From a virus (lineage: Duplodnaviria > Heunggongvirae > Uroviricota > Caudoviricetes), in the IMG/VR virus record IMGVR_UViG_2541047715_000004: a DNA stretch of 64,000 nt. One strand, written 5' to 3'. The notes under the pieces are model-generated. The model was not told the DNA's origin. It did not search any database and worked only from the letters and a program-made list of their open reading frames with translations. This document shows positions 502 through 57,512 of this stretch, piece after piece. Every line of letters begins with the position of its first letter. Position 1 is the first letter of the stretch. The translations under genes were made by a program, and so were the position numbers.

Positions 502-2841
502 ATGGCAAAAGGAAAATCCGCACTGGCACTTGCTCTGAAAAAGAAAATCGGTAGCAACGACGAAATTCAGAAAGTAACTCATTGGATTGACACAGGCTTT
601 CCTCCGTTAAACAAAGCTATTTCCGGTCGTTACGATGGCGGTTTCCCATGTGGTCGTATCGTAGAAGTATTCGGGCCACCAAGCGCGGGGAAATGTGTTA
701 CCGCAGACACCATGCTGCTGACGGAGCGTGGAATGGTAACAGTGAAAGAGTTGTTTGAGATTGAAGGGTACAAAGCGACATGCACTACTCGCGATGTAGA
801 GCATAACGTTGGACTCATCAATGAAAATGGCGTGATAGAGAAGACCTCACACCTGACATGGAACAACCGTCGCAAATTCAAGCGTATTAAGCTGGCATCA
901 GGCGGTTATATCGAGGCTACGTTCCGTCACCCAATCCGTGTGGTTGACGACTTAGGTAATGTCGTCTGGCGACATGCTGAAAAAATCAGTGTAGGCGACA
1001 CGATTCCTTCAATGGTTGGCACACATCAATTCGGCGATCAGCACCTGGATGCCAATATCGCAAAACTGATGGGCTATTTAATTGCTGACGGATACGTGGC
1101 CTCTGAAAATTCAGTGAATTTTTCTAACACAGATCCTTTCATCAAGGATGAGTACTACCGCCTCATTTCGCTGGTATCAGACAAGATGCCAGTTACGAGA
1201 AAACATAACGGCTCGGAAGACCATGTGCTGTTTAGCAAAGAGGTGCGTTCGCTGCTTTTTAAAGAATATGGTCTGGAGTATGAGAAAGCTGCTGGCAAGC
1301 AGGTTCCGTTGAGTGTGCGTCGCGCCAATAGCGAGGCTCAAATTGCATTCCTTCGCGGCTACTTTGAGCTGGAATGCCACGTCAATGATGGTCGCTGCAT
1401 TGAGGTTGTGAGCGCGAGTGGGCTGCTGCTACAGCAAATTCGCCTCATGCTCCTGAATCTGGGGATTACGTCAACTATCTCTGAAAAACACGTCGCGGGT
1501 TATGAAAATACATATTACCGGCTGTCATTCAGTGGCTCTAATTACGACCTTTTTCTGTCAACGATTGGTTTCGAATCTCCGGCACGTTTATCAGTGGCAA
1601 CCAAACGGGACATTGGTTTTGACCGCACTTACTCAGGCTATGTTCCGCACATCAGCGGCTTAGTGAAATCACTCTACGAGTCGCTCACCAAGACCACCCG
1701 TGAAGACTACGCTCTGGTAGACCACGTTATTGGCCGCGGCGATCGTGTCGGAATAGACAAACTGCGAGAAATCTATGTCTCCTTCATTGGCAGAAAGAAT
1801 CGTTTTAACGAGCATCTGTTTGCACAACTGGCAGCGGTAATTGGCTCTAACTTGTTCTACGACGAAGTCGTGGCTATTGAGGAAGGTGAAGCACCAACGT
1901 TCGACGTAGCGATGCCGGAAACACACTCTTTCTGGTCTAACGGGATTATCAGCCACAACACATTCCTTGCAACAGCAGCGATGATCTCCGCTCAAAAACA
2001 AGATGGTCTGGCGGTATTCCTCGATCATGAAAACAGTTTTGACGTTGGCCTGGCTGTAGCCAATGGCCTGAACGCAGATGAGGATGACGGTCAGTGGGTA
2101 TACAAGCAGCCAGATACCTTCGAAGACTCTGTAGAGTTGATCGGCACAATACTTAAATTGGTTCGTGATGAAGAGCTTATCCCCGAATCAGCACCTATCT
2201 GTATCGTGGCTGACTCTCTTGCGTCTATGGTTCCGAACTCCAAAGCCGAGAAGTTCGAAAAGATGGCTGAAGGCACAGCCAAAGACAAAGATCAGCTAAA
2301 CATGAACGACAATACGGCACTGGCTCGTGCGACGAGTGCGAACTTCCCTACTCTGGCTTTGTGGGCACGCAAATACAACGCCTGCATCATCTTCTTGAAT
2401 CAGGTTCGCACAAAAATCGGTGTAATGTTTGGCGACCCTACTACGTCGCCAGGTGGAGATTCACCGAAGTTCTACGCTTCTGTACGTATCCGTCTTGGTG
2501 CATCGGTGATGAAGGATGGTAAAGAGAAGATCGGCCAGGACGTAGGCGCAGAATGCATCAAAAACAAAGTTGCACCACCGTATGGCAAATGCACCTGGAA
2601 ATTCTACTTCGATCCTACTCGTGGCCTCGACGTTATCGAATCGCTCGTCGAGTACATGCTGGAAGAAGGATACCTGCCAAAGAACGCCAGCGGGCGAGTT
2701 GAAATTGGTGACAAGAAATACACCAAATCGCAGATCGTCGAGATGTATCGGGAGAAGCCACTGGCTGAAATCATTGCGGCTTTGCAGGCAATCGACGACC
2801 GAAGAGCAAAAGACAACCCCACCGAGCCAGTAGAAGAGTAA
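502..2841 (+). CDS. recA: RecA-family recombinase interrupted by an intein
   Basis: Extein motifs GRIVEVFGPPSAGK..T and LNQVRTKIGVMFGDPTTSPGGDSPKFYASVRIRL closely parallel E. coli RecA P-loop and L2 region; 779 aa because of a 422-aa insertion. Confidence 0.85.
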   Translation: MAKGKSALALALKKKIGSNDEIQKVTHWIDTGFPPLNKAISGRYDGGFPCGRIVEVFGPPSAGKCVTADTMLLTERGMVTVKELFEIEGYKATCTTRDVEHNVGLINENGVIEKTSHLTWNNRRKFKRIKLASGGYIEATFRHPIRVVDDLGNVVWRHAEKISVGDTIPSMVGTHQFGDQHLDANIAKLMGYLIADGYVASENSVNFSNTDPFIKDEYYRLISLVSDKMPVTRKHNGSEDHVLFSKEVRSLLFKEYGLEYEKAAGKQVPLSVRRANSEAQIAFLRGYFELECHVNDGRCIEVVSASGLLLQQIRLMLLNLGITSTISEKHVAGYENTYYRLSFSGSNYDLFLSTIGFESPARLSVATKRDIGFDRTYSGYVPHISGLVKSLYESLTKTTREDYALVDHVIGRGDRVGIDKLREIYVSFIGRKNRFNEHLFAQLAAVIGSNLFYDEVVAIEEGEAPTFDVAMPETHSFWSNGIISHNTFLATAAMISAQKQDGLAVFLDHENSFDVGLAVANGLNADEDDGQWVYKQPDTFEDSVELIGTILKLVRDEELIPESAPICIVADSLASMVPNSKAEKFEKMAEGTAKDKDQLNMNDNTALARATSANFPTLALWARKYNACIIFLNQVRTKIGVMFGDPTTSPGGDSPKFYASVRIRLGASVMKDGKEKIGQDVGAECIKNKVAPPYGKCTWKFYFDPTRGLDVIESLVEYMLEEGYLPKNASGRVEIGDKKYTKSQIVEMYREKPLAEIIAALQAIDDRRAKDNPTEPVEE
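694..1959 (+). mobile_element. intein with LAGLIDADG homing-endonuclease domain inserted in RecA Walker A motif
   Basis: Starts with Cys (TGT at 694) right after GPPSAGK, ends with His-Asn (1954-1959), +1 extein residue Thr; internal LMGYLIADGYV and LRGYFELECH motifs. Confidence 0.8.
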
Positions 2842-2870: not shown

Positions 2871-2932
2871 TCTCTTGAAAATATATAAGTACTTACTTAT
2901 TATTTTCGCATAAAAACCACATAGGAAAACAC

Positions 2933-4008: not shown

Positions 4009-4058
4009 ATCGCAATTATCTTATTAAGAAAACAATTTGTTTAAAAGGATAAGAAAAC

Positions 4059-8472: not shown

Positions 8473-9558
8473 ATGACTTTGCCATACGGCGTCATTTCTG
8501 ACTGCCACTACCACAAATGGGATGCGTTCTCCACGACGAACGCTGAGGGGCTTAACTCCAGACTTGAAATACAGTTGGAAGCAACGAAAGAAGCAGCCAT
8601 CGCCATGAAGAAGGCCGGTTGTAAGTACATGTTGGTTGCCGGTGATACATTTCACGTCCGAGGAACTGTGTCCCCTTCTGTTTTGCATTACGTAACTGAA
8701 ACGTACAAGTGGATTATCAACGAGCTTGATCTGACAGTAGTAATGCTGGCCGGTAATCACGATCTTGAAACCAACGATTCAGTATATAGCGCCAACGCAG
8801 CAGCATCGCTGAGTTCTATCGGCGTGGTAATCGTATGTGGCAAGCGCCCACACTCAATAAAAATTGGTGATGTGACTGTCCACCTGATTAGCTGGCGTAA
8901 CAATCATGCGGAGCTTATCAGCGATCTGAAAGCATTACGTAAGAGCGTAGAAGGTGATAATCATGACGTTGTTATCCATACATCCATTAACAAAGCCATT
9001 CCAACAATGCCTGACGTCGGTATCGATGCGCAGGAGTTAAAGGATATCGGCTTTCGTCTCGTGCTTAGTGGGCATTACCACAACCACAAAGAGGTCATTC
9101 CTGGAGTTATCAGTGTCGGTGCACTGACTCATCAAAATTGGGGAGATGTTGGATCTCTGGCTGGCTACATGATCGTAAACCCGGACGGCAGTTTCAGTCA
9201 CTACGAAACCAGTGCGCCTAAATTCATTAACCTGGAAGATGATGTTGCTGATGACCAAATTCGCGGCAACTACGTGCGTTTCCGCGCCGTAATTGAGAAC
9301 GATGAAGAAGGCATTAAGTACCAGAACATCCTCAAAACAATGGGTGCAAAAGGTGTCGTGTGCAACTTCATCCGTAAGTCATCAATGATGGAAGGGACAG
9401 CCAGCACAACTGAAACCAGCAAAATCGATAGCCTGGGAGAGTCGGTATCTGCTTATTGCAAGATTGTCCACGATACTGACGGCGGATTTGATCTGAGCAA
9501 ATTGGATATTTTGTGTCAGGAAATCCTCACCGAAGCGGAGAGTTCGGAGGCTGTGTGA
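8473..9558 (+). CDS. SbcD/Mre11-like calcineurin-fold nuclease
   Basis: Phosphoesterase motifs VAGDTFHV, LAGNHDLE, SGHYH; followed by Rad50-like ATPase. Confidence 0.7.
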   Translation: MTLPYGVISDCHYHKWDAFSTTNAEGLNSRLEIQLEATKEAAIAMKKAGCKYMLVAGDTFHVRGTVSPSVLHYVTETYKWIINELDLTVVMLAGNHDLETNDSVYSANAAASLSSIGVVIVCGKRPHSIKIGDVTVHLISWRNNHAELISDLKALRKSVEGDNHDVVIHTSINKAIPTMPDVGIDAQELKDIGFRLVLSGHYHNHKEVIPGVISVGALTHQNWGDVGSLAGYMIVNPDGSFSHYETSAPKFINLEDDVADDQIRGNYVRFRAVIENDEEGIKYQNILKTMGAKGVVCNFIRKSSMMEGTASTTETSKIDSLGESVSAYCKIVHDTDGGFDLSKLDILCQEILTEAESSEAV

Positions 9559-13016: not shown

Positions 13017-13050
13017 TTTCATTGATAGGTAAGTGCTTATCTATTAACAT

Positions 13051-18876: not shown

Positions 18877-19290
18877 ATGGCAAGAGGTATGTATGTCTTA
18901 TGCGAAATTGAAGGTGTGCTGGCAAATGCCAGCCATCGTAAATCAGTATCTGACGCGGATGCAGGCCAGCTCATTGCCGGTGATGAACTCATTTTCCCCA
19001 CCAGCCGTATGTTGCGTGGTTTTGCTCGCTCAGGGGCTGAAGTGGTGCTTATCAGTAGCCGCTCTGAAACTCTTGAAGCGCCAACTAAACGATGGCTGAA
19101 AGATTTTGGCGTTGATTATGACTGGCTTCATCTTGTACCGAATGGCACCAGTTATGAGAAGCATATTAAGCGCACATTAGCGGAGCATAAAGGCGATCTG
19201 CTTATCGCTGCGCTGGTGCACGATCCTCGACTCCGTGCCGCTTTAGCCGACTCTCACCATCGACCGGTCATCTATGAGGTGAGCAAATGA
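18877..19290 (+). CDS. hypothetical protein, possibly degenerate HAD-like
   Basis: Start taken at ATG 18877 just after thyA stop; N-terminal CEIEGVLA resembles HAD motif I with Asp residues replaced. Confidence 0.35.
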   Translation: MARGMYVLCEIEGVLANASHRKSVSDADAGQLIAGDELIFPTSRMLRGFARSGAEVVLISSRSETLEAPTKRWLKDFGVDYDWLHLVPNGTSYEKHIKRTLAEHKGDLLIAALVHDPRLRAALADSHHRPVIYEVSK

Positions 19291-19763
19291 AGATGATCGC
19301 TGCTGTTGGCCGTAACTATGAGATCGGCATAGCGAATGAACTCCCCTGGCGTTGTTCTACCGATCTGAAGCTATTTAAGAGACTCACCAAAAACGCCACT
19401 GTCGTTATGGGGCGTAAAACGATGGAAAGTCTCAAACGCCCTCTTCCAGAGCGTCATAACCTCGTTTTGACGCGCTCTCATGGCTTTGTACCAAATGGAT
19501 TCTACCCTGCTGGTGTGGATGATGTGTTGCGATTACCAGAGCCTGTGTGGGTGATTGGCGGGGAACAAATTTACTCGCTATTCATGCCGCATGTTGAAGA
19601 GATTTGGCTCTCCCACATCGGCGTTGATGTACCAAACGCCGATGCATTCTTCCCGGCAAGCATGATGCGTAACTTAGGCTTTGTGCCTGTTGAAACAGCT
19701 TATACCCAACGAGCCAGCGAGGAAGAGCCTGGCTTTTCGCAGATCGTATACAGAAGGTCGTAA
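19287..19763 (+). CDS. folA: dihydrofolate reductase
   Basis: MIAAVGRNYEIGIANELPWR...VVMGRKT pattern typical of DHFR; follows thyA homolog. Confidence 0.8.
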   Translation: MKMIAAVGRNYEIGIANELPWRCSTDLKLFKRLTKNATVVMGRKTMESLKRPLPERHNLVLTRSHGFVPNGFYPAGVDDVLRLPEPVWVIGGEQIYSLFMPHVEEIWLSHIGVDVPNADAFFPASMMRNLGFVPVETAYTQRASEEEPGFSQIVYRRS

Positions 19764-22549: not shown

Positions 22550-22608
22550 ATTGCCAGACATAAAATCAAATGCAAAAATAGGTAATCACTTACCTATCGA
22601 GAAAGACG

Positions 22609-23619: not shown

Positions 23620-24205
23620 TAGATAAGTACAAACTATTCATAAAGTGAATTGTAAGTGCTAAGATCTGATAGTTTCCAGTCGTAGACTGGAGGCTCGACC
23701 TGATGGGTGGGGGTAAGCGTCACTGGCGTCAGGTTTAAAAAAGCTCACTACCAGCGTAGAACCGGCACCGTTTAGGGGTTGGGGAAGGGGGAACCAAAGT
23801 GAGCAGAGACAAGGGTCACTTTATGATTGTCGAGTCTGGGGTGTTTCGAGAGGTTGAATCCAGTACTCCCCTTCATAAAGTGTGGGAAGATCTCGGTTCT
23901 GGGGTGCTGTCATCCATAACTTCCCAAGCCTAAGCTGGCAGTAGACTTAGGTCATAACTTTTCAGGTTATGAAACGACCAGGTTGGTGAGGAAATTTTGT
24001 ACTCACCTCCCTGGGAGAGTATTACCTGAAAAGACAACCTCTCACTTCGTTCGAGGTGAACTTCACTCACTTCGTTCGTTCAGTTCAGGTTTATAAAAAC
24101 CTGTTCTGGGAAGTAATTTGTTTATTTTAATAATTATTAACACGCACGCGTGTGCGCACGCGCGAGGAAAAAAAAATCGGCGCGGCGCTTGATTCAGGAG
24201 TTTAT

Positions 24206-24796
24206 ATGACGACGAAGACACCAGCCCGATCGCAAGCAAAAACTCGCAAAAATGACAAAAACAAAAATTCTCCCCGCACCAATTCCACAACGCCTGTCGT
24301 AGAGTTCAATCCCCAGCTTAAAACCGTGAAAATCTTCAGTGATGGCTCTTGCCTTAAAAATCCGGGTGGCCCGGGCGGTTACGGTATAGTTCTCCAGTAT
24401 GGTGGTGAGGAACGCGAGTTCTCAGATGGTTTTCATAGCACCACCAATAACCGCATGGAGATGATGGGGGCACTTATCGGGCTGGAGCGTTTGAAATATC
24501 CATGCAACGTTATTTTGTACTCTGATAGCCAGTATCTGAAAAACGGCATGACACAGTGGATGAAATGGTGGAAACGCAATGGATGGATGACTTCTGACAA
24601 AAAACCGGTAAAGAATGTTGATCTGTGGAAGCGTCTGGATGAGGCCGCAAGTCGACATAATGTTCGCTGGAAGTGGGTTAAAGGTCACGCCGGGCATCGT
24701 GAAAATGAAATATGTGATCGACTCGCGAAGATCGCAGCTTTTTCAGCAGCAGATATGCCTCACAAGAAAGATATTGGTTTTGTTTATAACAAGTAG
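24206..24796 (+). CDS. rnhA: ribonuclease HI with N-terminal basic extension
   Basis: Core [21 protein letters not shown]...NNRMEMM...SDSQYL...[19 protein letters not shown] parallels E. coli RnhA; start taken at ATG 24206 with AGGAG RBS. Confidence 0.85.
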
Positions 24797-24944
24797 TAAG
24801 TAAGTGTTTACCTATCATTTTAAATCATGTATCTTATCAGCGTCAGGATGACAATGTGTCGGTAAGACACAGTTCCAGGATGGAACGAGAAAGGCGGCTG
24901 GCGATCGCCAGCCGCAACTCTTTCTGACACTGGATGGAGTCCAC

Positions 24945-25439
24945 ATGGCACGTCAAACCTATTTCACTTCTGCAACTAAACGTCCTCGTTCTTTACGTCA
25001 AATTTTGGCCGAATTGTTTAGCGGTCGTGTTATGTCACGTCTTGATGAACTAGAGACTACCGTTCGGTTGCTGAATGAACGTTTAGATAATCAAGCGTCA
25101 GTTGTTGCGAACGTGGGGGCGATTGTTGCCTCTGGTTCTTCACGCGAAGCGAAAAGTACACGGCCTTTAGTGAAGGAGAAAAACAACAAGGACAGTTCGA
25201 ATGGAAAATTTTCAAAGAAAGAGGCTGAAACCAATGGCCTACGTTCTCATTATAGTTTCACTGGCGACGGTAGCCGTTCCAGCCGGCCAGAGCCTTTTGA
25301 TGCCGGGTTCATCCATCACCACACCTCCGTCGACGACAATTACCACCACTCCAGTAGAGCGTCCTGTCACTCTGGATGGGATGACGGTGGATGCGATACC
25401 TCAAGTTCATCCAGTTACTCAGGATCATGTTGTGACTAA
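24945..25439 (+). CDS. hypothetical protein (3' extent uncertain)
   Basis: 164-aa ORF with low-complexity C-terminal half, overlapped out of frame by ORF 25201-25452 that encodes a hydrophobic segment. Confidence 0.3.
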   Translation: MARQTYFTSATKRPRSLRQILAELFSGRVMSRLDELETTVRLLNERLDNQASVVANVGAIVASGSSREAKSTRPLVKEKNNKDSSNGKFSKKEAETNGLRSHYSFTGDGSRSSRPEPFDAGFIHHHTSVDDNYHHSSRASCHSGWDDGGCDTSSSSSYSGSCCD

Positions 25440-25448
25440 GGTGGTTGT

Positions 25449-25637
25449 ATGAACTGGCTTTCAAATCACTTTGGGAAAATTTGGCTGGCAATTCTGGCTC
25501 TCATGGCCGCCGGTTGGGTATCCAACATTATAAAACTCGTTTGCTCAGGTGATCTCCAGTTTCAGGCTGGCATGACCTTGGCTCGTGTAGTTGGGATTTT
25601 TATTTTTCCAGTCGGTTCGGTACTTGGTTATTTCTGA
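25449..25637 (+). CDS. small membrane protein
   Basis: 62 aa, two hydrophobic helices. Confidence 0.4.
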   Translation: MNWLSNHFGKIWLAILALMAAGWVSNIIKLVCSGDLQFQAGMTLARVVGIFIFPVGSVLGYF

Positions 25638-25730
25638 CGGTTGTTAGTGCATATGCATTGACCGTCTTTGCGTAAGCAATTTATGTAACCAGAAAACAAT
25701 TTGTTTTGACAAATAGCAAAAGGAAAACAC

Positions 25731-26156
25731 ATGTTAGGTTTCTTCAAAAAGAAAACTCGTAAAGCTGTTATCGAAGTCAAAAAAATGGAGAACCGTGATG
25801 CGGTTGAAGCCACCGTGTGGGGCGGGTACATGATCTCCTATGCCAACGGTACATGCGATGCAAAAGAAATTTCCATTCTTGAGAAAACAATTGCAGCTCT
25901 GCCTGCATTTTCTCCTTTTGCTGGTGAGATTGCCCAGATGAGCGCCAATATCCGCGCTCAATACGAAGCCTCACCGCGCCGTGCTAATGCCCAGGCTTTA
26001 CGTGAGCTGGCGGATGTGGCCGGGACTGATGATGCAGTAGATGTACTGTGTCTGTGCCTTGATATTGCCGACCAGGACGGCATTGATGAACCAGAAGAGC
26101 AGGCGCTGAAAAAGATCGCCCAGGCGCTTCAGTTGTCACTGGATGCTTATCTCTAA
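25731..26156 (+). CDS. hypothetical protein
   Basis: 141-aa ORF with GAAAACAATTTGTTTT motif and conserved RBS upstream. Confidence 0.5.
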   Translation: MLGFFKKKTRKAVIEVKKMENRDAVEATVWGGYMISYANGTCDAKEISILEKTIAALPAFSPFAGEIAQMSANIRAQYEASPRRANAQALRELADVAGTDDAVDVLCLCLDIADQDGIDEPEEQALKKIAQALQLSLDAYL

Positions 26157-26315
26157 TGCTTGAGAGATTCCGGCTTGTGACCGTCATTGCTCTTCTGGTG
26201 ATAGCGGTGTTGGTGGATTTTACGGGAAAGATGATGTCTGTCATTTCTGATGGCGTCCTCATTGGTCTGGCGATCTACTTCGCTTATCCGCTAGTCCGTA
26301 AAGCAACGTGTTAAT
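26157..26315 (+). CDS. small membrane protein (below 60-aa ORF cutoff)
   Basis: 52 codons MLERFRLVTVIALLVIAVLV..., start overlaps upstream stop, followed by terminator. Confidence 0.3.
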
Positions 26316-26316
26316 G

Positions 26317-26346
26317 ACAAGGGCCAAATGGCCCTTGTGTTTCGTT
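26317..26346 (+). terminator. rho-independent terminator
   Basis: Hairpin acaagggcc-aaat-ggcccttgt followed by T-rich run. Confidence 0.55.
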
Positions 26347-26453
26347 GACCGAAATAGAGAGTTTGCACCTTTACGTTTAGCTTGCTCCCCTTTTATGCCA
26401 CATCACAATAAAGCCAATAAGAAAACAACTTGTTTAAGCATTAGGAAAAACAC

Positions 26454-27023
26454 ATGTGCAAGAAATGCAAAGCGATAGCTGATGAACAAAACGCCTTATT
26501 CGAAGAAATGGATGCTAATGAACTGGTCAAAATGTTAGCCATTCTTCGAGGAATAGAAGACGTTTCCATATTTGAGAGAGTGGTTACAGCACTTAATTTT
26601 GAGTCCACCTTTGAAGAGCCAACTCAGGTTGTAGCTTTAGCACATCATTTCGGTGTTCATTATCTTGCTGAAAAAGAGCGCGCTGATAAGTTGCAGGCGA
26701 CTTTGGATATGGTGAGCGAGACTCAACGAACTGATGACACTAACAAGAGTGAGGCGATTATTGCCAGCAAAGATCGTGAAATTGCTGGGCTTAAATCCTC
26801 TCTAACGATGTTGATGTCTGCGTTCAATCTTATGTCTTCTCAGGCGGGTTATAAAATGCCATCACTAAACAGCGATGATCCGATGGCCGTTCGTCAGCTT
26901 TTGGGAGCAATGGCCGACCAACTCGACGACACAAAGAGTCGCCTTGAAGACATGATGCGTGAGTTAAGCCATCGACATAACCTCGCAACACAACCACACA
27001 AAGTCTTTCAAAGCTCTAATTGA
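26454..27023 (+). CDS. hypothetical protein
   Basis: 189-aa ORF, motif and RBS upstream. Confidence 0.5.
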   Translation: MCKKCKAIADEQNALFEEMDANELVKMLAILRGIEDVSIFERVVTALNFESTFEEPTQVVALAHHFGVHYLAEKERADKLQATLDMVSETQRTDDTNKSEAIIASKDREIAGLKSSLTMLMSAFNLMSSQAGYKMPSLNSDDPMAVRQLLGAMADQLDDTKSRLEDMMRELSHRHNLATQPHKVFQSSN

Positions 27024-27027
27024 TCTG

Positions 27028-27058
27028 ATATGGCCGCATGATCGGCCATATTGTGTTG
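27028..27058 (+). terminator. rho-independent terminator
   Basis: Hairpin atatggccg-catga-tcggccatat followed by T-rich run. Confidence 0.5.
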
Positions 27059-27077
27059 ATAAAAACAAGGGTGAAAA

Positions 27078-27359
27078 ATGGCATACGGTACAGGGATTTA
27101 CAACAATAAAGGAATTAACGTTACTGGCTTCCTTACACCTATTTTTTTTCTTGATCGATTTACGGCGTCATCAGGCTCTAAGACGTACTCTAATCCGCCA
27201 CCGGGTAAATCACTACATGCCGTGTGGTCATTAATGCCTCTTAACAACGACAACTACATCAATTTACCTGTTCCAAATGTTACTATTAATGGAAATACGG
27301 TTAGTTGGTCAAATTTATATACGGGGCTTGGTTCTTACATATACACATACTGGGGATAA
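27078..27359 (+). CDS. hypothetical protein
   Basis: 93-aa ORF in AT-rich stretch. Confidence 0.35.
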   Translation: MAYGTGIYNNKGINVTGFLTPIFFLDRFTASSGSKTYSNPPPGKSLHAVWSLMPLNNDNYINLPVPNVTINGNTVSWSNLYTGLGSYIYTYWG

Positions 27360-27361
27360 TT

Positions 27362-27976
27362 ATGTTCGGGATGTCAATTACTCAATCAGATGGAAGTTTG
27401 TGGATGAGTCCTGAATTTACTCCGCAAAATCTGATTAATAAAGGGACAATGTCTACATCTAAAGGTTCTGTTTTTCAAACATCAATCCCATCAAACAAAT
27501 CATGCTTTTTCTTCATAAAAAGCAGCAATAAGGCGAACATGATGTTTATTCATGAACATAGTAACGGATACAATGCTCTCAGATTGCATCAGGTAAATGG
27601 TAGCCCCGGAACAATAACAGTTTATGCTTTTTCTGATATGGTGTTACCACATTCTGGCTATGGCATTGCCATGTATAACAGCGCAGGCGCAATGGTGTAT
27701 CACGGTGAGATGATGCCCCTTGATGCAAAACTTATCACTATTACTGACCCACAATTTACAATAGATATGGGGTATCCGTGCGCAGTAATGCCTGCTATGG
27801 TTGGGGTTTATAACTATAGACGAACCGATTACGACAGACCTGTCTATGTAACTATGACCGGTGCAACTGGAAACCAAGTATATAACGGTCAATGGTATTC
27901 CGGTAATGTCACATGGGATATTAAGAAGATTTATACAAACAAAATCCTGGTTATAAATACCTCAAAGTATGATTAG
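27362..27976 (+). CDS. hypothetical protein
   Basis: Start taken at internal Met MFGMSITQ after upstream stop. Confidence 0.4.
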   Translation: MFGMSITQSDGSLWMSPEFTPQNLINKGTMSTSKGSVFQTSIPSNKSCFFFIKSSNKANMMFIHEHSNGYNALRLHQVNGSPGTITVYAFSDMVLPHSGYGIAMYNSAGAMVYHGEMMPLDAKLITITDPQFTIDMGYPCAVMPAMVGVYNYRRTDYDRPVYVTMTGATGNQVYNGQWYSGNVTWDIKKIYTNKILVINTSKYD

Positions 27977-28079
27977 CAAATACCTTTATTTAAAGGATTG
28001 CCTGTTAATTTCTATTTAGCACCTTTTCATTTTTGAAATAATTGCACTATTAAACAAATCTTTTCTTAATGGTGCAATT

Positions 28080-28614: not shown

Positions 28615-31600
28615 CTATATCTGCCCACCTACTCCTTTGAACTTTTCAATAAACGTGACGATTTTCTGGAAAACGGTCTGTTTTTTCGTTTTATATTGCG
28701 GGTTTAACGGACTAAGTTTTGGTAATGTCTCGTTTAATTCTGTGCCATTTTCGGTGGCGTATTCGCGTTTTAAAGACGTGCGAATATAGCGTTTCGCCGC
28801 CTCTTCATTGAGATTTTCTTCTTTTATCAATGCTTCTGCTTCACGTTGCTGTTCGCGTTGAGCAAACGTAAAGAATGCCTCAATGATACTGGCTTTGTCT
28901 GGTAAATCATCCAGGTTCGTTTGCTGAATAAAATCGACCACCAGGCCCTCTTTCGCCCGGTTCCCCAGGCTTGAACGAATTAAGCGTTTGACCTCTTCGA
29001 TCATTTCGCCCTTGCCTTTATTTTGTCTGTTGTGTTCGAAAATCAGTCCAAGGATATAATCCAGGTTTATTTCCTGAGACTTCAGCAAATCGACCTCAAA
29101 AACTACGTCATCCCAGTCAGTGGTTGATTTCTCTTTTTTCTCAGCTTCTTTCTCACGGCGCTGCCAGTCGCGAATATCGTTATAGGCAGAACGATAATCC
29201 TGAATCTTGCGTTCAGCAGGGAGACGAATTGTTTGCAATTCAGCGAACTTTTCATCATCCACATAATGTTCTGCTTTGAATTTTTCTACCGCAACAGGAT
29301 CGCTAAGATCGATTTGTTGCAGGGCTTTCAGCGTGGCAAATTCATCATAGTTTTGCAGGATGTTCTCGGCACGCAGGTATTCACCAAACAGTTTTACGAA
29401 GTCTTTCTTCTCTTTTTCACTTTCAATACTGGCAGGGTCAGGGAACCGTTGTTCCAGTTCTGAAACTACTGCCATAAAGCCGCGTTTAGCTTCACCAGTG
29501 GCAGCATCTGTAAAGCCTTCCATATACTCAGCATAACTCTTTTCTAACACCACATTTTTAGTATTTTTATCACCAAACAGCGTTATGGCATCAATGGTTG
29601 AGCGTTCCAGATCCCGAAAAGTGACGATGTTACCGAAGGTTTTAGTAGCGTCATAAATGCGGTTGGTACGGGAGAATGCCTGCATCAGGCCGTGAAAACG
29701 CAAGTTTTTATCGACGAATAGCGTGTTCAATGTTGGAGCGTCGAAGCCGGTTAAAAACATCCCAACGACAATTAACAGATCGATATCCTGATTTTTAACC
29801 CGTTGGGCTAAATCACGATAGTAGTTCTGAAAACCGTTACTGTCGGTGCTGAAGTTAGTTTTAAAATAGCTGTTATACTCACGAATTGCAGCGTCAAGAA
29901 ACTCTTTAGCACTGCTGTCCATTGCGCTGGTATCAAAAGTTTCATCGGAAATTTCACCAATGGCATTTTGTTCTTCATTGGCGGCAAAGGAGAAGATTGT
30001 TGCAACACGCAGCGGTTTATAGGTAGCCGATTTATTAGCTGCTTCCTCTTGTAACCGTTTAAACGTCGCGTAATAGGCTTTCGCGGCATCCACGCTACTC
30101 ACTGCCAGCATGGCATTAAAGCCTTTGGAACCTGGGAAAGTACGGTGGGTCTTCTGGCGGAAGTTATTCAGAATATATTGCGTAATTTCCTGTATACGCA
30201 TGGGATGAAGAAATGCCTGCTGATTTTCAGCCGCACTCAGTTTTTTCTCGTCGGTTTCTGTCTCTAAAGATTTAAACTGTGGCCGCACATCGTTGTAGTC
30301 CACCTTGAATTTGAGCACTTTTTCATCACGAATCGCATCGGTAATTACATACGAATGCAATTCACGACCAAATACGCTGGCGGTCGTTTCTGAGCCTAAG
30401 GCGTTTTCCGGGAAAATAGGTGTGCCGGTAAAACCAAACTGATAATAGCGTTTGAATTTCTTCTTCAGGTTTTTCTGCGCTTCTCCAAACTGGCTGCGGT
30501 GACATTCATCAAATATAAACACCACTTGCTGATTGTATACAGGCAGGTCGCTTTCTGCTTTCATCAGGTTATTAAGTTTCTGAATAGTGGTGACGATAAT
30601 TTTGTTATCGTCCTTATCCAGATTGCGTTTAAGACCTGCGGTATTTTCCGAGCCGTTGACGCTGTCTGGCGAAAAACGCTTATATTCATTCATGGTCTGG
30701 TAATCGAGGTCTTTCCTGTCGACCACGAAGAAGACTTTATCAATAAAGTCCAGCTCTGTTGCCAGACGCGCGGCTTTAAAGCTGGTGAGGGTTTTACCTG
30801 AACCGGTAGTGTGCCAGATATACCCACCGCTTTCCGGTTTTGACCAGTTCTTCGCTGTAAAGGAACTCTTAATTTTCCACAGAATGCGCTCAGTGGCGGC
30901 AATCTGGTACGGTCGCATCACCAGTAGCGTTTGGCTAACATCGAATACGCTGTAGTTCACTAAGACATTAAGCAGGGTATGTTTCTGGAAAAAGGTGGCG
31001 GTAAAGTCTTTGAGGTCTTTAATCAGCGTGTTGTCTGATTTCGCCCAATTCATGGTGAAGTCAAAACTGTTTTTATCGCGCTTTGTCGTGTTGGCAAAGT
31101 AACGGGTATCGGTGCCGTTGGAAATGACAAACAGTTGCAGATACTTAAACAGAGAATTTTCGCTGTTAAAACTCTCTTTGCTGTAACGATGTATCTGGTT
31201 AAAGGCCTCACGAATCGCCACGCCGCGCTTTTTCAGTTCGATTTGTACCAGCGGTAAGCCATTAACCAGGATCGTGACGTCATAACGGTTAGCATGAGAA
31301 CCCGTCTGTTCAAACTGCTGGATAATCTGCACCTTGTTGCGCATGAGATTCTTTTTATCTATCAAATAGATGTTCTCAAGACGCTCGTCATCAAAAATAA
31401 AGTCGCAAATATAGTCGATATGGATTTTACGGGTCTTATCCAGGATGCCATCGCTCGGGTTATCCAGATACTGCTCCGTGAAACGCCGCCATTCGCTGTC
31501 ATTAAACACCACACCATTGAGGTTCTGAAGCTGTTCCCGAACGTTGGCCAGCATCGCCGACTGAGATTTTACGGAAATAAATTCATAGCCCTGATTCCGC

Positions 31601-39079: not shown

Positions 39080-39240
39080 TTAAACAACCTCTGTTCGCAA
39101 TGCCCGGCAACACGCTGGGCATTTTCATATAGACACAACCCCTTCTGACTTTAACAAACCCTAAAACAATTTGTTTTCTACCTTTTGTTGATTGAGATAA
39201 TAAGCCACATAAGAAAACAAATTGTTTCGGAGTTGTTGAA

Positions 39241-39914: not shown

Positions 39915-40484
39915 ATGGATGTGATGGAAACCCAGAACCAACAAACAAAACCTCTGAATAACATTTATGCGTGGATTCTAGCGTTCATGCCTTTCTTCTT
40001 TGGAGTATCGCCGGAAGAGTATACCAATTACGCTATTATAATTGGGGGTGTAACTACCATCGGTTTGTTAGTAGCTGACAGAATGGCTCTATCGGAGTCT
40101 GGCTGTGAACCACCTTCAATTCTATGGGGGGTATTCCTCCTGCCTGTCTATCTCTGGAAGCGCGCGACTATTACAAAAGGCAGCAGAGTGCCATTTATCA
40201 TAATCGTTGCGTCGCTGGCTTGGATTATCTTCATCGGCATCCCACACAAGGACGAGGTTGCTCTTGAAGAAGCAGCCTGCCCTCTCGTGACAACTATTCT
40301 GAAAGAGAATAACGGTTCGACTGCACCAAAATGTATGAAGGTGACAATAGAGGACAAGGTGACGGATAAGTTCTATAGAGCAACGGCTACACTAGACAAT
40401 GGTAATGACATTAACATTACTCTGGAACTTACCGGCGACAGGAACTTCTACGTCCGTGTTCCAAATGTTTATCTGAACAACTAA
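39915..40484 (+). CDS. hypothetical membrane protein
   Basis: Several hydrophobic segments; exact start uncertain. Confidence 0.4.
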   Translation: MDVMETQNQQTKPLNNIYAWILAFMPFFFGVSPEEYTNYAIIIGGVTTIGLLVADRMALSESGCEPPSILWGVFLLPVYLWKRATITKGSRVPFIIIVASLAWIIFIGIPHKDEVALEEAACPLVTTILKENNGSTAPKCMKVTIEDKVTDKFYRATATLDNGNDINITLELTGDRNFYVRVPNVYLNN

Positions 40485-40699
40485 CGGTTGTAACTTATTG
40501 ATAATGGCGGTCACAATTTGATTCTTTTCTATAAGAATCCGTTGATCGCCACTACTCCCCTACCATGCCCGCAATCACATCCTTAAATATCAATAAGTTA
40601 TAGTTGTTTATACAATCAAGAAAACAACTGAATAACAGATCAACGAAACATCAACGCTTTCACCCGATTTGGTCTAAAAAATTGACGTTTTCACACATC

Positions 40700-41340
40700 A
40701 CTGCTTATACCCGTAATTCTACACAGCAGACAGCGCCACAGCGTCCAATTTTCACCACAGACGACCCAACACACTACCAACAAAAACACATGCTCAAAAT
40801 CGTTCCCGTTGCGTTACATAACCATATAAACAACTTATTTTCAGGCATAACAAAACAACTAAATAACACATATGCCATTCCCAAAACAACCAACCTCGTT
40901 ATGGCAGGCTACCGAAAAGACCCACCTCTTCTTCCCAGGCTACCGGACAACCAACCTAACTTTCACAGGCAATCCGAAAACATTCATACGCGCGATACCC
41001 ACGACACGCCATTACCCAAACAGCGAAGAAACACCAGAATCACTGAAACCCCAACGAAGCCTGTAACCGCAAGGTTTCTCTCAATCCCAAAAGACACGAA
41101 GCATAACAATCACGGGAAACGCCATTACCCAATACACGAATAACTACAAAAGCCTTTCACACACTCCAGACAAACAACTCAAACACAATAACGAAAGGAA
41201 TCGCCCACCTGCCATTACTCCATACACGGAGAAGAACAATCACCAAAACGACGAGAACACCCCATAGAAGAACCACCGCAAAACTAACGAAACCACATAC
41301 ACCGACAGAGAAAACAACACACCCAATTCACCAACAGAAA
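40700..41340 (+). other. C+A-rich, G- and T-depleted tract (approximate bounds)
   Basis: Long runs such as caccacagacgacccaacacactaccaacaaaaacaca; ORF 40604-41143 translates to low-complexity T/P/N/K/H/Q-rich sequence. Confidence 0.6.
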
Positions 41341-41467
41341 TAGTCGCCGTATAGAACGTTCTGGAAGGAGTGAGCATTAACGCCTATAGAGAGGTTGAGA
41401 CAGATAAAACACGAAGAAAACACAACATGTATAGCGAAGAAGCCAGGTATGTATAAGTGGGGAGGGA

Positions 41468-41490
41468 AGGAGGGGTGTCGCCTCCTTTTT
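41468..41490 (+). terminator. putative terminator after CA-rich tract
   Basis: Hairpin ggagg-ggtgtcg-cctcc followed by TTTTT. Confidence 0.4.
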
Positions 41491-41553
41491 CGTATTTATT
41501 CAACTCCTGATTTTATCCCCCGTAAAACCCCTACGGTCAGCCTTCGGTCCATA

Positions 41554-41700
41554 CAGGGAAAAGGTTGCATCCCGCTACAGAAACGGCTGGGTTGCCTTCG
41601 GGGAACGGCTGGAGGTTTTCAGGGAAACGGTCGAGTTGCCTGTGTGGATTTCGGGAGAAGGCTCGATGCCGGTTCAGGAACGGTGGAGTACCGGTATAGC
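41554..41700. repeat. array of GGGAAACGG-like repeats at about 22-25 bp spacing
   Basis: cagggaaaagg, cagaaacggctgg, ggggaacggctgg, gggaaacggtcg, gggagaaggctcg, ggaacggtgg. Confidence 0.55.
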
Positions 41701-42047
41701 GAGAGGGAGAGTTGCGGCTATCCACCTGTAATCTGCGGGAAGAAGAGTGGCGCTCACGTGCAGGCGGACTAACTTACCGTTGGACTCCCTCTGAATGCCC
41801 AGTTACAGCGTAATTGTGCCAGACAGCCAACGGGTCACAATCGATTTCAGTAGGTTTTCGGGGAGATGATTATTCTGCCCACCAGCCACCTTCGGCCACT
41901 AAATCAGAATAATGTAAAAAGTGTTCTCGGTACTGAACCTGAAAACTCACTGCCAAAACCACATTCACCGGAATAAAATCCTTTTTCGCCTGTGCGTTAT
42001 TGCGATAATAACACCATCAAGAAAACATGTTGTTTAAGGATTGCTTT

Positions 42048-42377: not shown

Positions 42378-42530
42378 ACCTAACCAAAGCCAGCATTGCT
42401 GGCTTAATTTCTCTATAGCCGCAGGGAAGAACCTGCATATCGCTCATGCACCTGATCATTATGCTTTGTAGCCGTTTTCTTACTGGTATTATTTACGCCA
42501 TTGAGAAAACAAGTTGTTTACGGAGTTGTG

Positions 42531-42907: not shown

Positions 42908-42968
42908 TTGTAAGTACATACTTACGATCATAGAATATAAAAATAACCAATACACTACGGAGAGTGAA

Positions 42969-43400: not shown

Positions 43401-43481
43401 TAAGCCCGATAACAATTTGTTTTCTGCCTTATCTGATTTGTGAAAATGATTTCACTGAAGCAACTTAATAAGGAAACCATC

Positions 43482-44002: not shown

Positions 44003-44206
44003 TTATTAAGGCCATCAGCATTGGTGGCCTTAAATGACCATCTTGTTTCCCGCAGGCTAAAAACACCAACCTCTTACCTCCAGGCAACCGACAAACCCAC
44101 CTGTTCCCGTCCGGCTACCGCAACTTTCCACTTTGACGCCTTATTCGTACAACGATAATTAACGCCAACAAGAAAACAATTTGTTATTTACGATAAGGAA
44201 TTAATC

Positions 44207-47823: not shown

Positions 47824-48102
47824 TTACGGCAGTTTGCTTAGAATTTGCTCTAAATCTTCCTTTGTCATATTAGAGTTCTCATAGATGCGCATGATTTTCT
47901 CACGAGCCTTAGCAGAGACTCCAACGGCAGATGAAACTTTGTCAAATTCAGCCATTGTCATCGCTTCCAGAATGGTATTGATAACTTCAGCCTTAGACAT
48001 TTTGATGTTTTTTTCTTTTAGTTTCATTTGAAACTTTCCAAGTTTGTCATTGGCCTTATCGGACAATGCCACCTGACAATAAGTTGTTTTCTTTTCGCTC
48101 AT
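47824..48102 (-). CDS. small hypothetical protein
   Basis: 92 aa, immediately downstream of helicase gene; terminator hairpin gtgcggcaa...ttgccgcac follows on minus strand. Confidence 0.45.
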   Translation of the reverse strand: MSEKKTTYCQVALSDKANDKLGKFQMKLKEKNIKMSKAEVINTILEAMTMAEFDKVSSAVGVSAKAREKIMRIYENSNMTKEDLEQILSKLP

Positions 48103-49664: not shown

Positions 49665-49746
49665 AAACCTCTTTCCTTAGTGCCTTTTGTATGTTATTTG
49701 GCTATTATAATAAGTAAGTGATTACTTAGTGGATTGTAGCAATAAA

Positions 49747-52999: not shown

Positions 53000-53113
53000 T
53001 CGTAAGACATGCCAGACCTAATTAAACACCCCAGAAAACAAGTTGGTTAGCAGATGCAGTAAACAAGTTGTTTTAGAGCGCATGGACGCGCTCTGTGTGT
53101 TTTAGAGGGATCT

Positions 53114-55002: not shown

Positions 55003-55028
55003 GTAAGTAATTATCTAAGGTTATTCAA

Positions 55029-56603
55029 ATGGAATTGAACGACAAACAAATTAAGGATCTGGTGGCGCGACGCCACCCGGAATACGAAAAGAAAAAAGAA
55101 CATTGGGACTTCCTCGCCAGCACTTACGCTGGCGGGCGTGGTTGGTTTACAGACAATATCTTTCGTTACTTTAAAGAGGGAGATCAGGAGTTTAAGGAGC
55201 GAGTTGAACGTGCTTATCGCTTCAACCACACTCGTGAGGTGGTAAACCTCATCAACAAATATCTCTTTAAAGAAGACATTCATAGAAATATCGAAGAGGC
55301 ACCAGAGCAGATCCGCAATTTCTGGAAACGTGCGACTCGCCAGAATGCCTCTATTGACTCATTTATGGCCGCTATTGATTTGCAGTCGTCTATTTACGGT
55401 CGCATATGGGTTGTTGTCGATAGCACGATGAGTGGTGATGTTGAGTCAGTAGCTGACGAGAAAAAGAAAGATGCTCGCGCCTACGCCTACTGGATTTCAC
55501 CTCAGCAAATGCTGGATGTGGCATGGGACGACGACGGGAATATGTTGTGGGCGTTAATTGTGGAAGTCGCTCGTGATGACGCAGATCCTTTTACTTCTAC
55601 AGGTCAGGAATACCAACGTTATCGTCTGTGGACACAAAACGAGTGGTATCTGTTCCGTGAGGAAGTGAAGAAGGGCGCTGGTGGAGCAGGTCGCCGTCAG
55701 GCAAAAGTTATTTTAGAGGATAGCGGTGAGCATAATCTCGGCGTAGTTCCTGTGTTTCCTGTTGATTGTATTGGAGAAAGTGAATCACCGTATTTCAGCC
55801 CATCGTTGATCGATGATATCGCTTATCTTGATCGTGCGGTTGCAAACTATCTGTCAAACCTTGATGCCATTATTCAGGATCAGACATTTAGCCAGTTGGC
55901 TATACCGGTACAGTCGCTTTTACCTGGTGATGAAAACCACACTAAAGTGCTTGAAATGGGCACAAAGCGAGTCTTCACCTACGATTCTGAAGGTGGAAAC
56001 CAGCCGTTTTATCTGTCACCAGACCCGAAACAAGCTCAGATGATCATCACTACGATTAAGACGGTGATTAACGAAATCTACCATTCAGTTGGTGTAGCTG
56101 GTGAGCGAACGAAGCAGGACAACGCACAGGGAATCGATAACTCATCTGGTGCCGCAAAAATGTATGACTTCCAGCGTGTAAATAGCTTGCTTGTCACAAA
56201 AGCAGAGCGTCTGGAAAGGGCTGAACGCCAAATCATGCTACTGGTTGCGAAATGGATGGGGGTAGATCTGGACGAAGACCACTCATTAATTGCGTATCCA
56301 GAAAGTTTCGATATTCGTGGCCTTACTGATGAATTTTCTGTTGCCGAGAAACTGTCGTTACTTCAGGCACCGGACTCTGTACGTCGTCACCAGATGGAAA
56401 TGCTGATTGAGAAGATTTTCCCGAACATCACTGAGGCGATGAAGAAGGAATTTGATAAAGATCTCTTGAATTTTCCGCCAAAAAATGATCTAAATACTCT
56501 TGAAAATAAGTCAGTACTTACTTATGATCAAGGCGCAGCCCAAGAAAGCGGGCAAGATCAACCCCGAGGGAATGGGGACTCATCTACTCAAGAGAACGAG
56601 TGA
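55029..56603 (+). CDS. portal protein
   Basis: 524 aa, immediately after terminase, before scaffold and capsid genes. Confidence 0.6.
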   Translation: MELNDKQIKDLVARRHPEYEKKKEHWDFLASTYAGGRGWFTDNIFRYFKEGDQEFKERVERAYRFNHTREVVNLINKYLFKEDIHRNIEEAPEQIRNFWKRATRQNASIDSFMAAIDLQSSIYGRIWVVVDSTMSGDVESVADEKKKDARAYAYWISPQQMLDVAWDDDGNMLWALIVEVARDDADPFTSTGQEYQRYRLWTQNEWYLFREEVKKGAGGAGRRQAKVILEDSGEHNLGVVPVFPVDCIGESESPYFSPSLIDDIAYLDRAVANYLSNLDAIIQDQTFSQLAIPVQSLLPGDENHTKVLEMGTKRVFTYDSEGGNQPFYLSPDPKQAQMIITTIKTVINEIYHSVGVAGERTKQDNAQGIDNSSGAAKMYDFQRVNSLLVTKAERLERAERQIMLLVAKWMGVDLDEDHSLIAYPESFDIRGLTDEFSVAEKLSLLQAPDSVRRHQMEMLIEKIFPNITEAMKKEFDKDLLNFPPKNDLNTLENKSVLTYDQGAAQESGQDQPRGNGDSSTQENE

Positions 56604-56624: not shown

Positions 56625-57512
56625 ATGCAACTGTGGCAAATGCTTTTGGCCCGTCGTGGTCTGATGGGTGTTGCTGAAGCGCATGAGCGTGGAGGCGCTG
56701 GCGGTGTAGCTGCTGATAATGAGCAGAGTACACAAGATCCTGACAAACAGGGTGAACAAAAAGAGCAGCCGAAGGGCGATGACGAATACGCTGGCATGAC
56801 TCAGGAAGAGTTACTGGCCGAACTTCGTAAAACCAAGAAAGCTGGTGCTGAACTGCTGAAGGAGAACATGAAGCGCAAAGAGAAAGAGCGCACATTGGCC
56901 GATCAGCTTGCTCAGTACGGTGATATCGATCCGGCTCGTGCTCGCCAGCTTTTAGAAGCTGAACAGGCCGCAGAAAACGCACGTCGTGAGGCGGAGCAAG
57001 CTGAACTGGAGCGTCGTGGTGAGTTCGATGCTGTTAAAAAACAGATGATCGAAGCACACCAGGCAGAGCTGGCACAGCGTGACGAACGTTATGCAGCACT
57101 GGAAAGTGAAAACGCATCACTGAAATCTCAATTAGTCGAGATGACCGTGGGCGCTTCCTTCAGTAACTCTCTCTTCCTACGTGACAAAGTTCTGATGACC
57201 CCGGCAAAAGCCCGCGTGATCTACGGTTCTCATTTTGAAGTGGGTGAAGACGGTAGCGTAGTGGGTTATGACAAACCGGCAGGTCACAAAGAACGAGCTG
57301 TTCTGGTTGACGGTGAAGGTAAGCCGTTGCCGTTTGAATCCGCGATTGAACGCATTGTGCGGGCAGATCCGGAAGCTGACGCATTGATGCGTAGCGAAGC
57401 CAAGCAGGGTGTAGGCTCACATTCCAAATCGACCTACACAATATCCCAACCGAAGAACAAGTCGACTATGGATAAGTTGGCCTCCGGTCTGGGGAAAATT
57501 GGACTTAAGTAA
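56625..57512 (+). CDS. scaffolding protein
   Basis: Coiled-coil-rich, charged, between portal and capsid genes. Confidence 0.5.
   Translation: MQLWQMLLARRGLMGVAEAHERGGAGGVAADNEQSTQDPDKQGEQKEQPKGDDEYAGMTQEELLAELRKTKKAGAELLKENMKRKEKERTLADQLAQYGDIDPARARQLLEAEQAAENARREAEQAELERRGEFDAVKKQMIEAHQAELAQRDERYAALESENASLKSQLVEMTVGASFSNSLFLRDKVLMTPAKARVIYGSHFEVGEDGSVVGYDKPAGHKERAVLVDGEGKPLPFESAIERIVRADPEADALMRSEAKQGVGSHSKSTYTISQPKNKSTMDKLASGLGKIGLK

Follow-up and report, generated by a model that had tools for sequence, protein, structure and literature searches.

A conserved palindrome dispersed over the promoters of an SSU5-type phage-plasmid as the probable operator set of one element-encoded regulator

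The 64,000-nucleotide stretch of viral DNA analysed here (IMG/VR record IMGVR_UViG_2541047715_000004; hereafter the window, meaning this stretch at its full length) is, judging from the annotation of its relatives, a single SSU5-type siphovirus phage-plasmid, and about a dozen of its promoters carry a palindrome of 13-17 bp, AAACAAnTTGTTT, with the symmetric core AAAACAAnTTGTTTT. We consider this palindrome to be the DNA operator set of one regulator encoded by the phage-plasmid, with a probability of roughly 0.7. Bases 24000-28000, which include the focal copy of the motif, match several ~110-kb plasmids of E. coli, such as pEcoFMU073332c (NZ_CP017847.1), at 100% identity and are 97% identical to Escherichia phage Cyrano (pLF82), ~80% identical to Salmonella phage SSU5 and ~77% identical to Klebsiella phage-plasmids. 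The gene content comprises nucleotide-metabolism and replication genes, a small-gene cluster, a helicase/FljA-like operon, two ParB-like genes and a terminase/head operon, together with an accessory block at 28.6-39.1 kb that encodes a type I restriction-modification system, an S24 peptidase, apbC and metG.

Scanning the window with the query GAAAACAANTTGTTT, allowing up to two mismatches and counting strand-hits, gave 24 hits against 1.39 +/- 1.37 expected from 100 dinucleotide shuffles of the window, none of which reached this number (maximum 6). A preliminary description of this DNA had listed the palindrome before a series of genes, and every copy was found at the gene named, in each case between open reading frames (ORFs) and 5′ of a gene on the + strand. 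It had also proposed that sites on both sides of the host-type block tie the two arms to one element, which agrees with a single phage-plasmid whose sites flank an accessory block containing no copy at up to three mismatches. In Cyrano, the genome of which is 87% coding, 15 of the 18 core sites fall in annotated intergenic DNA (binomial P = 3e-11); of the remaining three, in ‘coding’ DNA, two probably reflect start codons called too early, one of them being an ATG inside the palindrome, and the intergenic share becomes 15-17 of 18 once such starts are allowed for. Annotated or longest-ORF starts inside or 5′ of the palindrome (an ATG in GAAAACATGTTG) are found in the window (42027 versus 42048) as well as at CYRAN_105 and CYRAN_110, and at such genes the ATG that follows an AAGGA Shine-Dalgarno sequence (42048 in the window) is the more likely start. 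A translation-initiation context, AAAGGAAAAACACATG, which had been attributed to many starts, is enriched as claimed (6 hits at up to three mismatches against 1.2 expected) although its reach was overstated, only five genes having it at their starts (4540, 8473, 15512, 25731 and 26454). This shared Shine-Dalgarno/ATG context is a minor feature, separate from the palindrome.

Relatives with the same genes do not lack the motif. Orthologous promoters in Cyrano, SSU5 and Klebsiella pJN2-26, namely those of nrdB, tciA, the gene after tciA, the small-gene cluster and terS, retain it at 77-81% DNA identity. In Klebsiella pJN2-26 AAACAAnTTGTTT is present in 11 perfect copies while any other 6+1+6 palindrome occurs at most once, and of 80 IMG/VR loci centred on a FljA-like gene, whose products share 60-100% identity, 74 have the motif as their top palindrome. 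Beyond the window the relatives carry it on parA, dnaB-type helicase and cobT-like promoters. When the helicase promoters of six lineages are aligned, the -35 element, the palindrome and the Shine-Dalgarno/ATG region are seen to be kept and the flanks to have diverged; the core is unchanged in all lineages sampled, though the intergenic DNA around it is not. A scan of IMG/VR with the bare motif returned mostly single chance matches and was uninformative. Providencia pPROV236-2 (CP096299.1), the TerL of which is 82% identical, has neither this palindrome nor the second family described below. In their place TATAAATAtt-ATGGGAGCACGG stands six times before genes of the Providencia element, terS among them (for example at 56804, 24813 and 89796), and the TATAAATA resembles a T4-type late promoter.

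Alignment of all sites from the four genomes defines two classes that differ in orientation and in their position on the promoter (Table 1). The coding strand shows GAAAACAAnTTGTTT at class A sites, which make up about three quarters of the total; a hexamer resembling a -10 element (GATAAT, TATTAT or CATAAT) ends 3-12 nucleotides (nt) upstream with a weak -35-like TTGnnn 15-17 nt further up, a Shine-Dalgarno sequence follows 0-15 nt after the palindrome, and the sites end 9-30 nt before the ATG. Reckoned from the -10- and -35-like hexamers, class A would occupy positions of about +1 to +22 in the predicted transcript. Class B, about one quarter of the sites, is inverted, its whole arm TTGTTTTC adjoining a T(G/A)CCTT box and overlapping the predicted -35 element of the next promoter, so that it would cover approximately -46 to -30 and centre near -38 relative to the predicted start. 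As the class B sites lie upstream, just behind the terminator of the preceding gene (39162 and 43408), they are not transcribed by their own promoter. Where a class A and a class B site occur together their centres are always 51 bp apart, in four independent cases (39162/39213 in the window, two in SSU5 and one in Klebsiella). The outermost G and C are conserved on the promoter-proximal side only.

The same promoter scaffold is used by a second palindrome family, GTAAGTnCTTAC, of the form (A)TAGGTAAGTnCTTACCTA(T), which is located 2-3 nt after -10-like hexamers and of which the genomes of Cyrano, SSU5 and Klebsiella each contain ~20 copies. One copy (GGTAAGTGCTTACC) lies in the control region of CYRAN_45, a Cyrano HTH_19 ‘putative repressor’. 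This family is probably the one that the preliminary description had counted as the first, and probably a separate regulon. The description of the focal palindrome as a mark of a ‘second regulon or promoter class’ can accordingly be divided: a second regulon is apt, since a distinct palindrome family is found at the corresponding position of like promoters, whereas a new promoter class is not supported, both families appearing as operators on a shared sigma70-like scaffold.

The two orientation classes and their fixed geometry argue for function, and thus against the idea that the palindrome is a site for a host nucleoid protein or transcription factor, or a passenger of duplicated promoter cassettes devoid of any regulatory role. 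The A/T-rich sequence would suit such an origin, as would the promoters of the 42-44 kb cluster, which are alike beyond the palindrome itself (GCGATAATnAcaCCAACAA). Against this, the 13-bp core is shared by sites that mostly have unrelated flanks, it stays invariant between lineages in spite of diverged intergenic DNA, and the distant relative in another host family uses a different motif instead. We know of no E. coli transcription-factor consensus that matches the palindrome, and we regard a host-factor or passenger origin as very improbable.

The state of the regulon in the lysogen can be judged from RNA-seq of LF82/Cyrano, which covers all Cyrano genes in an element 97% identical to that of the window (PMC9928086 S1 Table). 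Genes directly behind the motif have values of 5.7-12.9 against a median of 9.8, with 11 of 14 at background; terS (7.1), CYRAN_58 (5.7), nrdB (12.9), tciA (7.0) and CYRAN_101 (7.5) are examples, and parA (49.8), the helicase gene (21.1) and CYRAN_111 (25.5) are the exceptions (PMC9928086). In the plasmid state, then, the regulon is silent apart from the par operon, its sole clearly expressed member. The most highly expressed phage-plasmid gene in this lysogen is CYRAN_43 (Cyrano 40268-40822, by the integrase and outside the window), which reaches 7084 against the same median, has no Pfam match and is absent from SSU5.

In the mechanism that we favour, one symmetric DNA-binding protein, either a dimer or a dimer of dimers, would recognize AAAACAAnTTGTTTT at ~17-20 promoters, 11 promoter regions of which are in the window. 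Once bound it would block RNA polymerase, at class A sites by covering the predicted start and the first ~20 transcribed bases and at class B sites by covering the -35 element, while the 51-bp spacing of the A+B pairs, close to five helical turns, would permit cooperative binding or the formation of a small loop. Occupied sites would in this way silence the nucleotide-metabolism and replication genes, many small early genes and the terminase operon during plasmid life. As distinct from the enrichment, position, spacing and conservation of the sites, it is repression on binding and the identity of the binder that we infer.

Recognition of double-stranded DNA by a symmetric protein is what the pattern of variation points to, given the lack of RNA signals, the position of class B outside the transcript and the helical phasing of the pairs. 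Among 478 unique sites departures from the consensus are almost all one-sided (at pair 2/14, 83 one-sided against 0 two-sided), with no compensatory changes and no enrichment of G-U compatible ones. Eight predicted leaders fold no better than shuffles (z about 0), the hairpin of the palindrome is worth -0.7 kcal/mol or does not form, and Rfam gives no match within the window. An RNA hairpin or leader element as the main function was rejected on these grounds, namely no covariation, no stable fold, no Rfam match and a class B that is not transcribed.

A related alternative is that class A acts as an RNA operator, the mRNA 5′ leader being bound by a FljA-family protein that would block translation of, or destabilize, ~15 mRNAs. 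Yamamoto and Kutsukake, and also Aldridge, both in 2006, reportedly dealt with the mechanism of FljA on fliC mRNA. Proteins of this type prevent the translation of fliC mRNA (PMC2652032), the window encodes one (PF03614), and its gene is found in every element with the motif. The likeness to the Salmonella system extends to class A sites lying in predicted leaders beside the Shine-Dalgarno sequence, at the distance from the ATG given above, and to the fliC leader of Salmonella and Citrobacter, where CAAGTTGT stands 7 nt before the Shine-Dalgarno sequence and matches the motif core. Yet in leaders taken from Salmonella and Citrobacter genomes only this 8-mer is common, the whole-motif match not being significant (matrix score -7 against 18-27 for true sites; shuffle p = 0.18), and the link to fliC was rejected on that account. 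The class B quarter of the sites (39162, 43408 and counterparts), upstream of promoters and behind terminators, cannot be leader RNA, and a perfect palindrome is left unexplained for a single-stranded target whose hairpin is marginal and whose variants show neither compensatory change nor any other signal of RNA structure. In addition the FljA-family protein is 75-78% conserved where the motif is invariant, and its transcript level in the lysogen is low (18, the median being 9.8). An RNA operator is thus an unlikely explanation of the motif.

The FljA-family gene is nonetheless core to all SSU5-like elements, and its product is predicted by modelling as tandem Sm/Hfq-like domains with no helix-turn-helix, a fold in keeping with the action on fliC mRNA reported for FljA. 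The model suggests that the flagellar phase-1 repressor family may be an RNA-binding, Sm-like family of phage-plasmid origin. One could also imagine, as a long shot, that a single 15-nt element is read twice, as DNA by a partition-linked repressor and at the mRNA 5′ end by the FljA-family protein. Were this so, segregation, copy number and the silencing of ~17 lytic promoters would be coupled, Salmonella FljA would be the domesticated descendant of a global translational repressor of a phage-plasmid, and CAAGUUGU in the fliC leader would be a remnant of a phage operator.

For the DNA-binding regulator itself, our tentative candidate, which we hold at somewhat less than even odds, is the 119-amino-acid (aa) protein CYRAN_29, encoded after a small ParA outside the window. 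It would be a partition adaptor of the ParG/omega kind that autoregulates parA, with the dispersed sites doubling as operators. The ParA (CYRAN_28) has 222 aa, with AAA_31, MipZ, CbiA and ParA matches, and is a small Walker ParA without an N-terminal DNA-binding domain. Residues 25-119 of the candidate are 99-100% identical among the E. coli, Salmonella and Klebsiella elements, against 77-81% identity elsewhere in these elements, and the protein ranks 8th in conservation among 81 shared ones; in lineages where it is only 48-70% identical, RPQGRPTRGK..IKSRTMS.EDE and FTRSDVIRAAI are invariant and the motif is kept. A palindrome lies 34-40 nt before the ATG of parA in Cyrano, SSU5, Klebsiella and three further lineages. 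The lysogen values of 49.8 for parA and 89 for the 119-aa gene (PMC9928086) show the par operon to be on, as expected of an autoregulated repressor. A pattern in the amino acid sequence (SRTMSL ... TRSDVIRAAI) suggests a ribbon-helix-helix fold. In Cyrano the ORF is labelled as a ‘RelE/ParE putative toxin’; its disordered basic tail, SRTMSL strand and TRSDVIRAAI helix look more like a partition adaptor.

Other candidate readers fit less well. CYRAN_45 is unlikely, as its own control region lacks the motif and carries GGTAAGTGCTTACC instead, and as the gene is absent from SSU5, where all sites are kept. The lysogen of Cyrano expresses a 92-aa protein, ribbon-helix-helix-like at its N-terminus, which was nevertheless rejected as an autoregulated reader because the motif-like sequence at its start codon is not kept in SSU5 or Klebsiella and because it is among the least conserved proteins.

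Several observations weigh against the assignment of the palindrome to a repressor and to the 119-aa protein in particular. SSU5 grows lytically yet keeps all sites along with the candidate gene, and any repression must therefore be escapable. No co-variation of regulator and motif was obtained, the motif being invariant in the sampled lineages, and in the Providencia element every candidate regulator has diverged along with the motif. Searches of Pfam and PDB with the 119-aa protein gave no sequence match, AlphaFold models it poorly (pLDDT 62.6; disordered over residues 1-47, with helices at 48-60 and 70-84), and profile comparison with ParG and omega sequences (hhalign) likewise found nothing. 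In the type Ib centromeres known so far repeats form an array adjoining par instead of standing as dispersed single palindromes, whereas here a single palindrome lies 5′ of parA, the other copies occur singly or in pairs elsewhere, and there is no array beside par. Start-site positions are predictions from hexamers, which makes the placement of operators relative to +1 a prediction as well. A simple sigma70 consensus scan did not call the motif promoters, and promoters dependent on an activator that is absent from the lysogen would account for the silence there just as well.

The last two points are also what would favour positive control, by an activator made after induction and acting in a class II-like manner from about -38 at class B sites, or by way of a phage-specific promoter element. 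The weak -35 hexamers, the 15-16 bp spacers and the centring of class B near -38 would suit such a scheme, as would the ParB-like proteins and an 88-aa protein encoded just upstream of terS, which are off in the lysogen and 84-90% conserved. Three quarters of the sites however lie downstream of the -10 element, a position typical of repressors and not normal for activators; the other palindrome family has the same position after the -10 element and is found at the control region of a putative repressor gene as well, and parA, which needs to be on in the plasmid state, carries a site. Positive control seems to us quite unlikely, and repression by one element-encoded protein remains the preferred reading.

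By analogy, the arrangement would be of an already known kind, the dispersed operator regulon of a plasmid-prophage, like that of P1 C1 or of KorA/KorB of RK2. In P1 too one repressor sequence is spread over many promoters of a phage that lives as a plasmid and lytic units are kept off, but C1 reads asymmetric 17-mers (ATTGCTCTAATAAATTT), whereas here the site is a perfect palindrome, its reader is only a candidate and two palindrome families share the job. RK2 (IncP) has short operators for KorA (OA, 12 bp) and KorB (OB, 13 bp with a central base) at many promoters, forming overlapping global regulons, and so resembles our element in having two short palindrome families in many copies on the promoters of one replicon; the sequences and proteins differ, RK2 is conjugative and not a phage, and the ParB-like proteins here are not expressed in the lysogen. 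Among partition proteins, omega of pSM19035, a ribbon-helix-helix adaptor that is a repressor as well, controls several promoters whose operators serve as centromeres. ParG of TP228 belongs to the ribbon-helix-helix proteins; its N-terminal tail is flexible, and it represses parFG through short repeats that it binds at the par promoter (PMC3130281). The resemblance of our element to both lies in a small ParA whose gene precedes that of a small protein, predicted to have a disordered basic tail at its N-terminus, and in a palindrome at the par promoter, while the ParG and omega sites are clustered arrays of 4- or 7-bp repeats in contrast to the single 13-17 bp palindromes over ~20 phage promoters seen here. 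N15 is likewise a phage-plasmid with single palindromes scattered through its genome, IR1-IR4, which form the centromere bound by the partition protein SopB (PMC7205306). It has four such sites, GTGCGACCnnGGTCGCAC, read by a type Ia SopB of the ParB family, compared with ~20 sites here, all on promoters, and a type Ib-like ParA. No published description of SSU5-like promoters or operators was found in the searchable literature, and as far as that literature shows neither the sequence nor its two-position geometry nor its pairing with another palindrome family on one scaffold has been described.

Two weaker copies of the palindrome are also present in the window. For the one at 40826 no clear promoter or downstream gene was recognized; it is included in a region (40600-41800) of strong A>T and C>G skew (AT skew 0.19, GC skew -0.12) with repeated caaaacaac-like words. 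The other, at 48075, is probably a chance match, because it lies inside a coding sequence (CDS) and is not kept in SSU5 or Klebsiella. At 53075-53105, directly behind the second palindrome of the terS promoter and before the terS start, the leader contains a 7-bp GC hairpin (AGAGCGC...GCGCTCT) and then a T-run, GTGTGTTTTAG; Cyrano, SSU5 and Klebsiella all keep this arrangement. Its appearance is that of a terminator within the leader, in which case the late operon would be under antitermination control. At the other end of the window (502-2841) a 779-aa ORF is labelled as a LAGLIDADG homing endonuclease in RefSeq and as RecA in Cyrano, the SSU5 recombinase having 358 aa, and looks like an intein or homing-endonuclease insertion within a recombinase gene.

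Table 1. Palindromic sites, associated promoter elements and candidate reader genes. Site coordinates are those of the 17-mer in the window; starts of downstream genes are in brackets.
Feature	Position	Strand	Context	Counterparts
Class A, focal site, GAAAACAATTTGTTTTG	25692-25708	+	22 nt 5′ of the ATG of a TerB/TciA-like gene (25731)	Cyrano 80547; Klebsiella 17793
-35-like TTGACC	25658-25663		promoter of the 25692 site	
Weak -10-like TTATGT	25681-25686		promoter of the 25692 site	
Class A	4028-4044	+	before a DUF7238 gene (4059), directly after a terminator hairpin	Cyrano 58593; SSU5 56846
Class A, GATAACAACTTGTTTAA	15466-15482	+	between nrdA and nrdB (15512)	Cyrano 70324; SSU5 70217; Klebsiella 7463
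Class A	26421-26437	+	before a 189-aa gene (26454)	Cyrano 81276; SSU5 81743; Klebsiella 18508
Class B, reverse orientation	39162-39178	-	arm TTGTTTTC adjoins TACCTTTT and overlaps the -35 region (39241); 51 bp 5′ of the class A partner (39213); ~37 nt after the metG terminator	same 51-bp pair: Cyrano 93112/93163; SSU5 88326/88375
Class A	39213-39229	+	-10 GATAAT ends 11 nt upstream; Shine-Dalgarno GGAG directly after (39241)	as for 39162
Class A, GAAAACATGTTGTTTAA	42021-42037	+	extended -10 TGCGATAAT upstream; true gene start probably 42048, not the ATG within the palindrome	
Class A	42505-42521	+	extended -10 TGGTATTAT upstream; GGAG and ATG (42531) downstream	SSU5 92757; Klebsiella 27630
Class B	43408-43424	-	~10 nt after a terminator; TTGTTTTC adjoins TGCCTTAT, then -10 GAAAAT; sole palindrome on the promoter (43482)	with class A partner 51 bp downstream: SSU5 93667/93718; Klebsiella 28537/28588
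Class A	44172-44188	+	TTGACG, 15 nt, GATAAT, 12 nt, palindrome (44207)	
First terS-promoter site	53034-53050	+	packaging/structural operon, terS (53114)	Cyrano 55; SSU5 54
Second terS-promoter site	53059-53075	+	25 bp downstream of the first	Cyrano 80; SSU5 79; Klebsiella 38626
Weaker copy, ATAAACAACTTATTTTC	40826-40842	-	strongly A-skewed stretch	SSU5 90745; Klebsiella 25874; Cyrano 94619
Weaker copy	48075-48091		inside a CDS; probably chance	
Second family, (A)TAGGTAAGTnCTTACCTA(T)	2885-2896			
Second family	13029-13040			
Second family	22582-22593			
Second family	24800-24811			
Second family	42910-42921			
Second family	49714-49725			
Second family	55003-55014			
Second family	56510-56521			
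FljA-family protein, 173 aa	46532-47053	-	candidate RNA-level reader; PF03614, E = 1.4e-68, full length	
92-aa protein	47824-48102	-	candidate reader	52-58% identity
119-aa ORF (CYRAN_29)	outside the window		candidate reader; overlaps the stop of parA	Cyrano 29975-30334; pEcoFMU073332c 8901-9254

Parts of the element match ~700-800 PLSDB records, SSU5-like phage-plasmids being common in E. coli, Klebsiella, Salmonella and Enterobacter, and members carry resistance genes such as dfrA51. In the window a phage dihydrofolate reductase gene (19287-19763) bears the RefSeq label of trimethoprim-resistant DfrA51, and dfrA50/dfrA51 in phage-plasmids are the subject of a 2025 paper (PMC12217456). The two palindrome families provide a concrete map of the regulatory circuit: two invariant families on one scaffold define which transcription units belong together and shortlist the candidate regulators. 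If the partition adaptor is the reader of the palindrome, segregation and lysogenic silencing would be mechanistically coupled.

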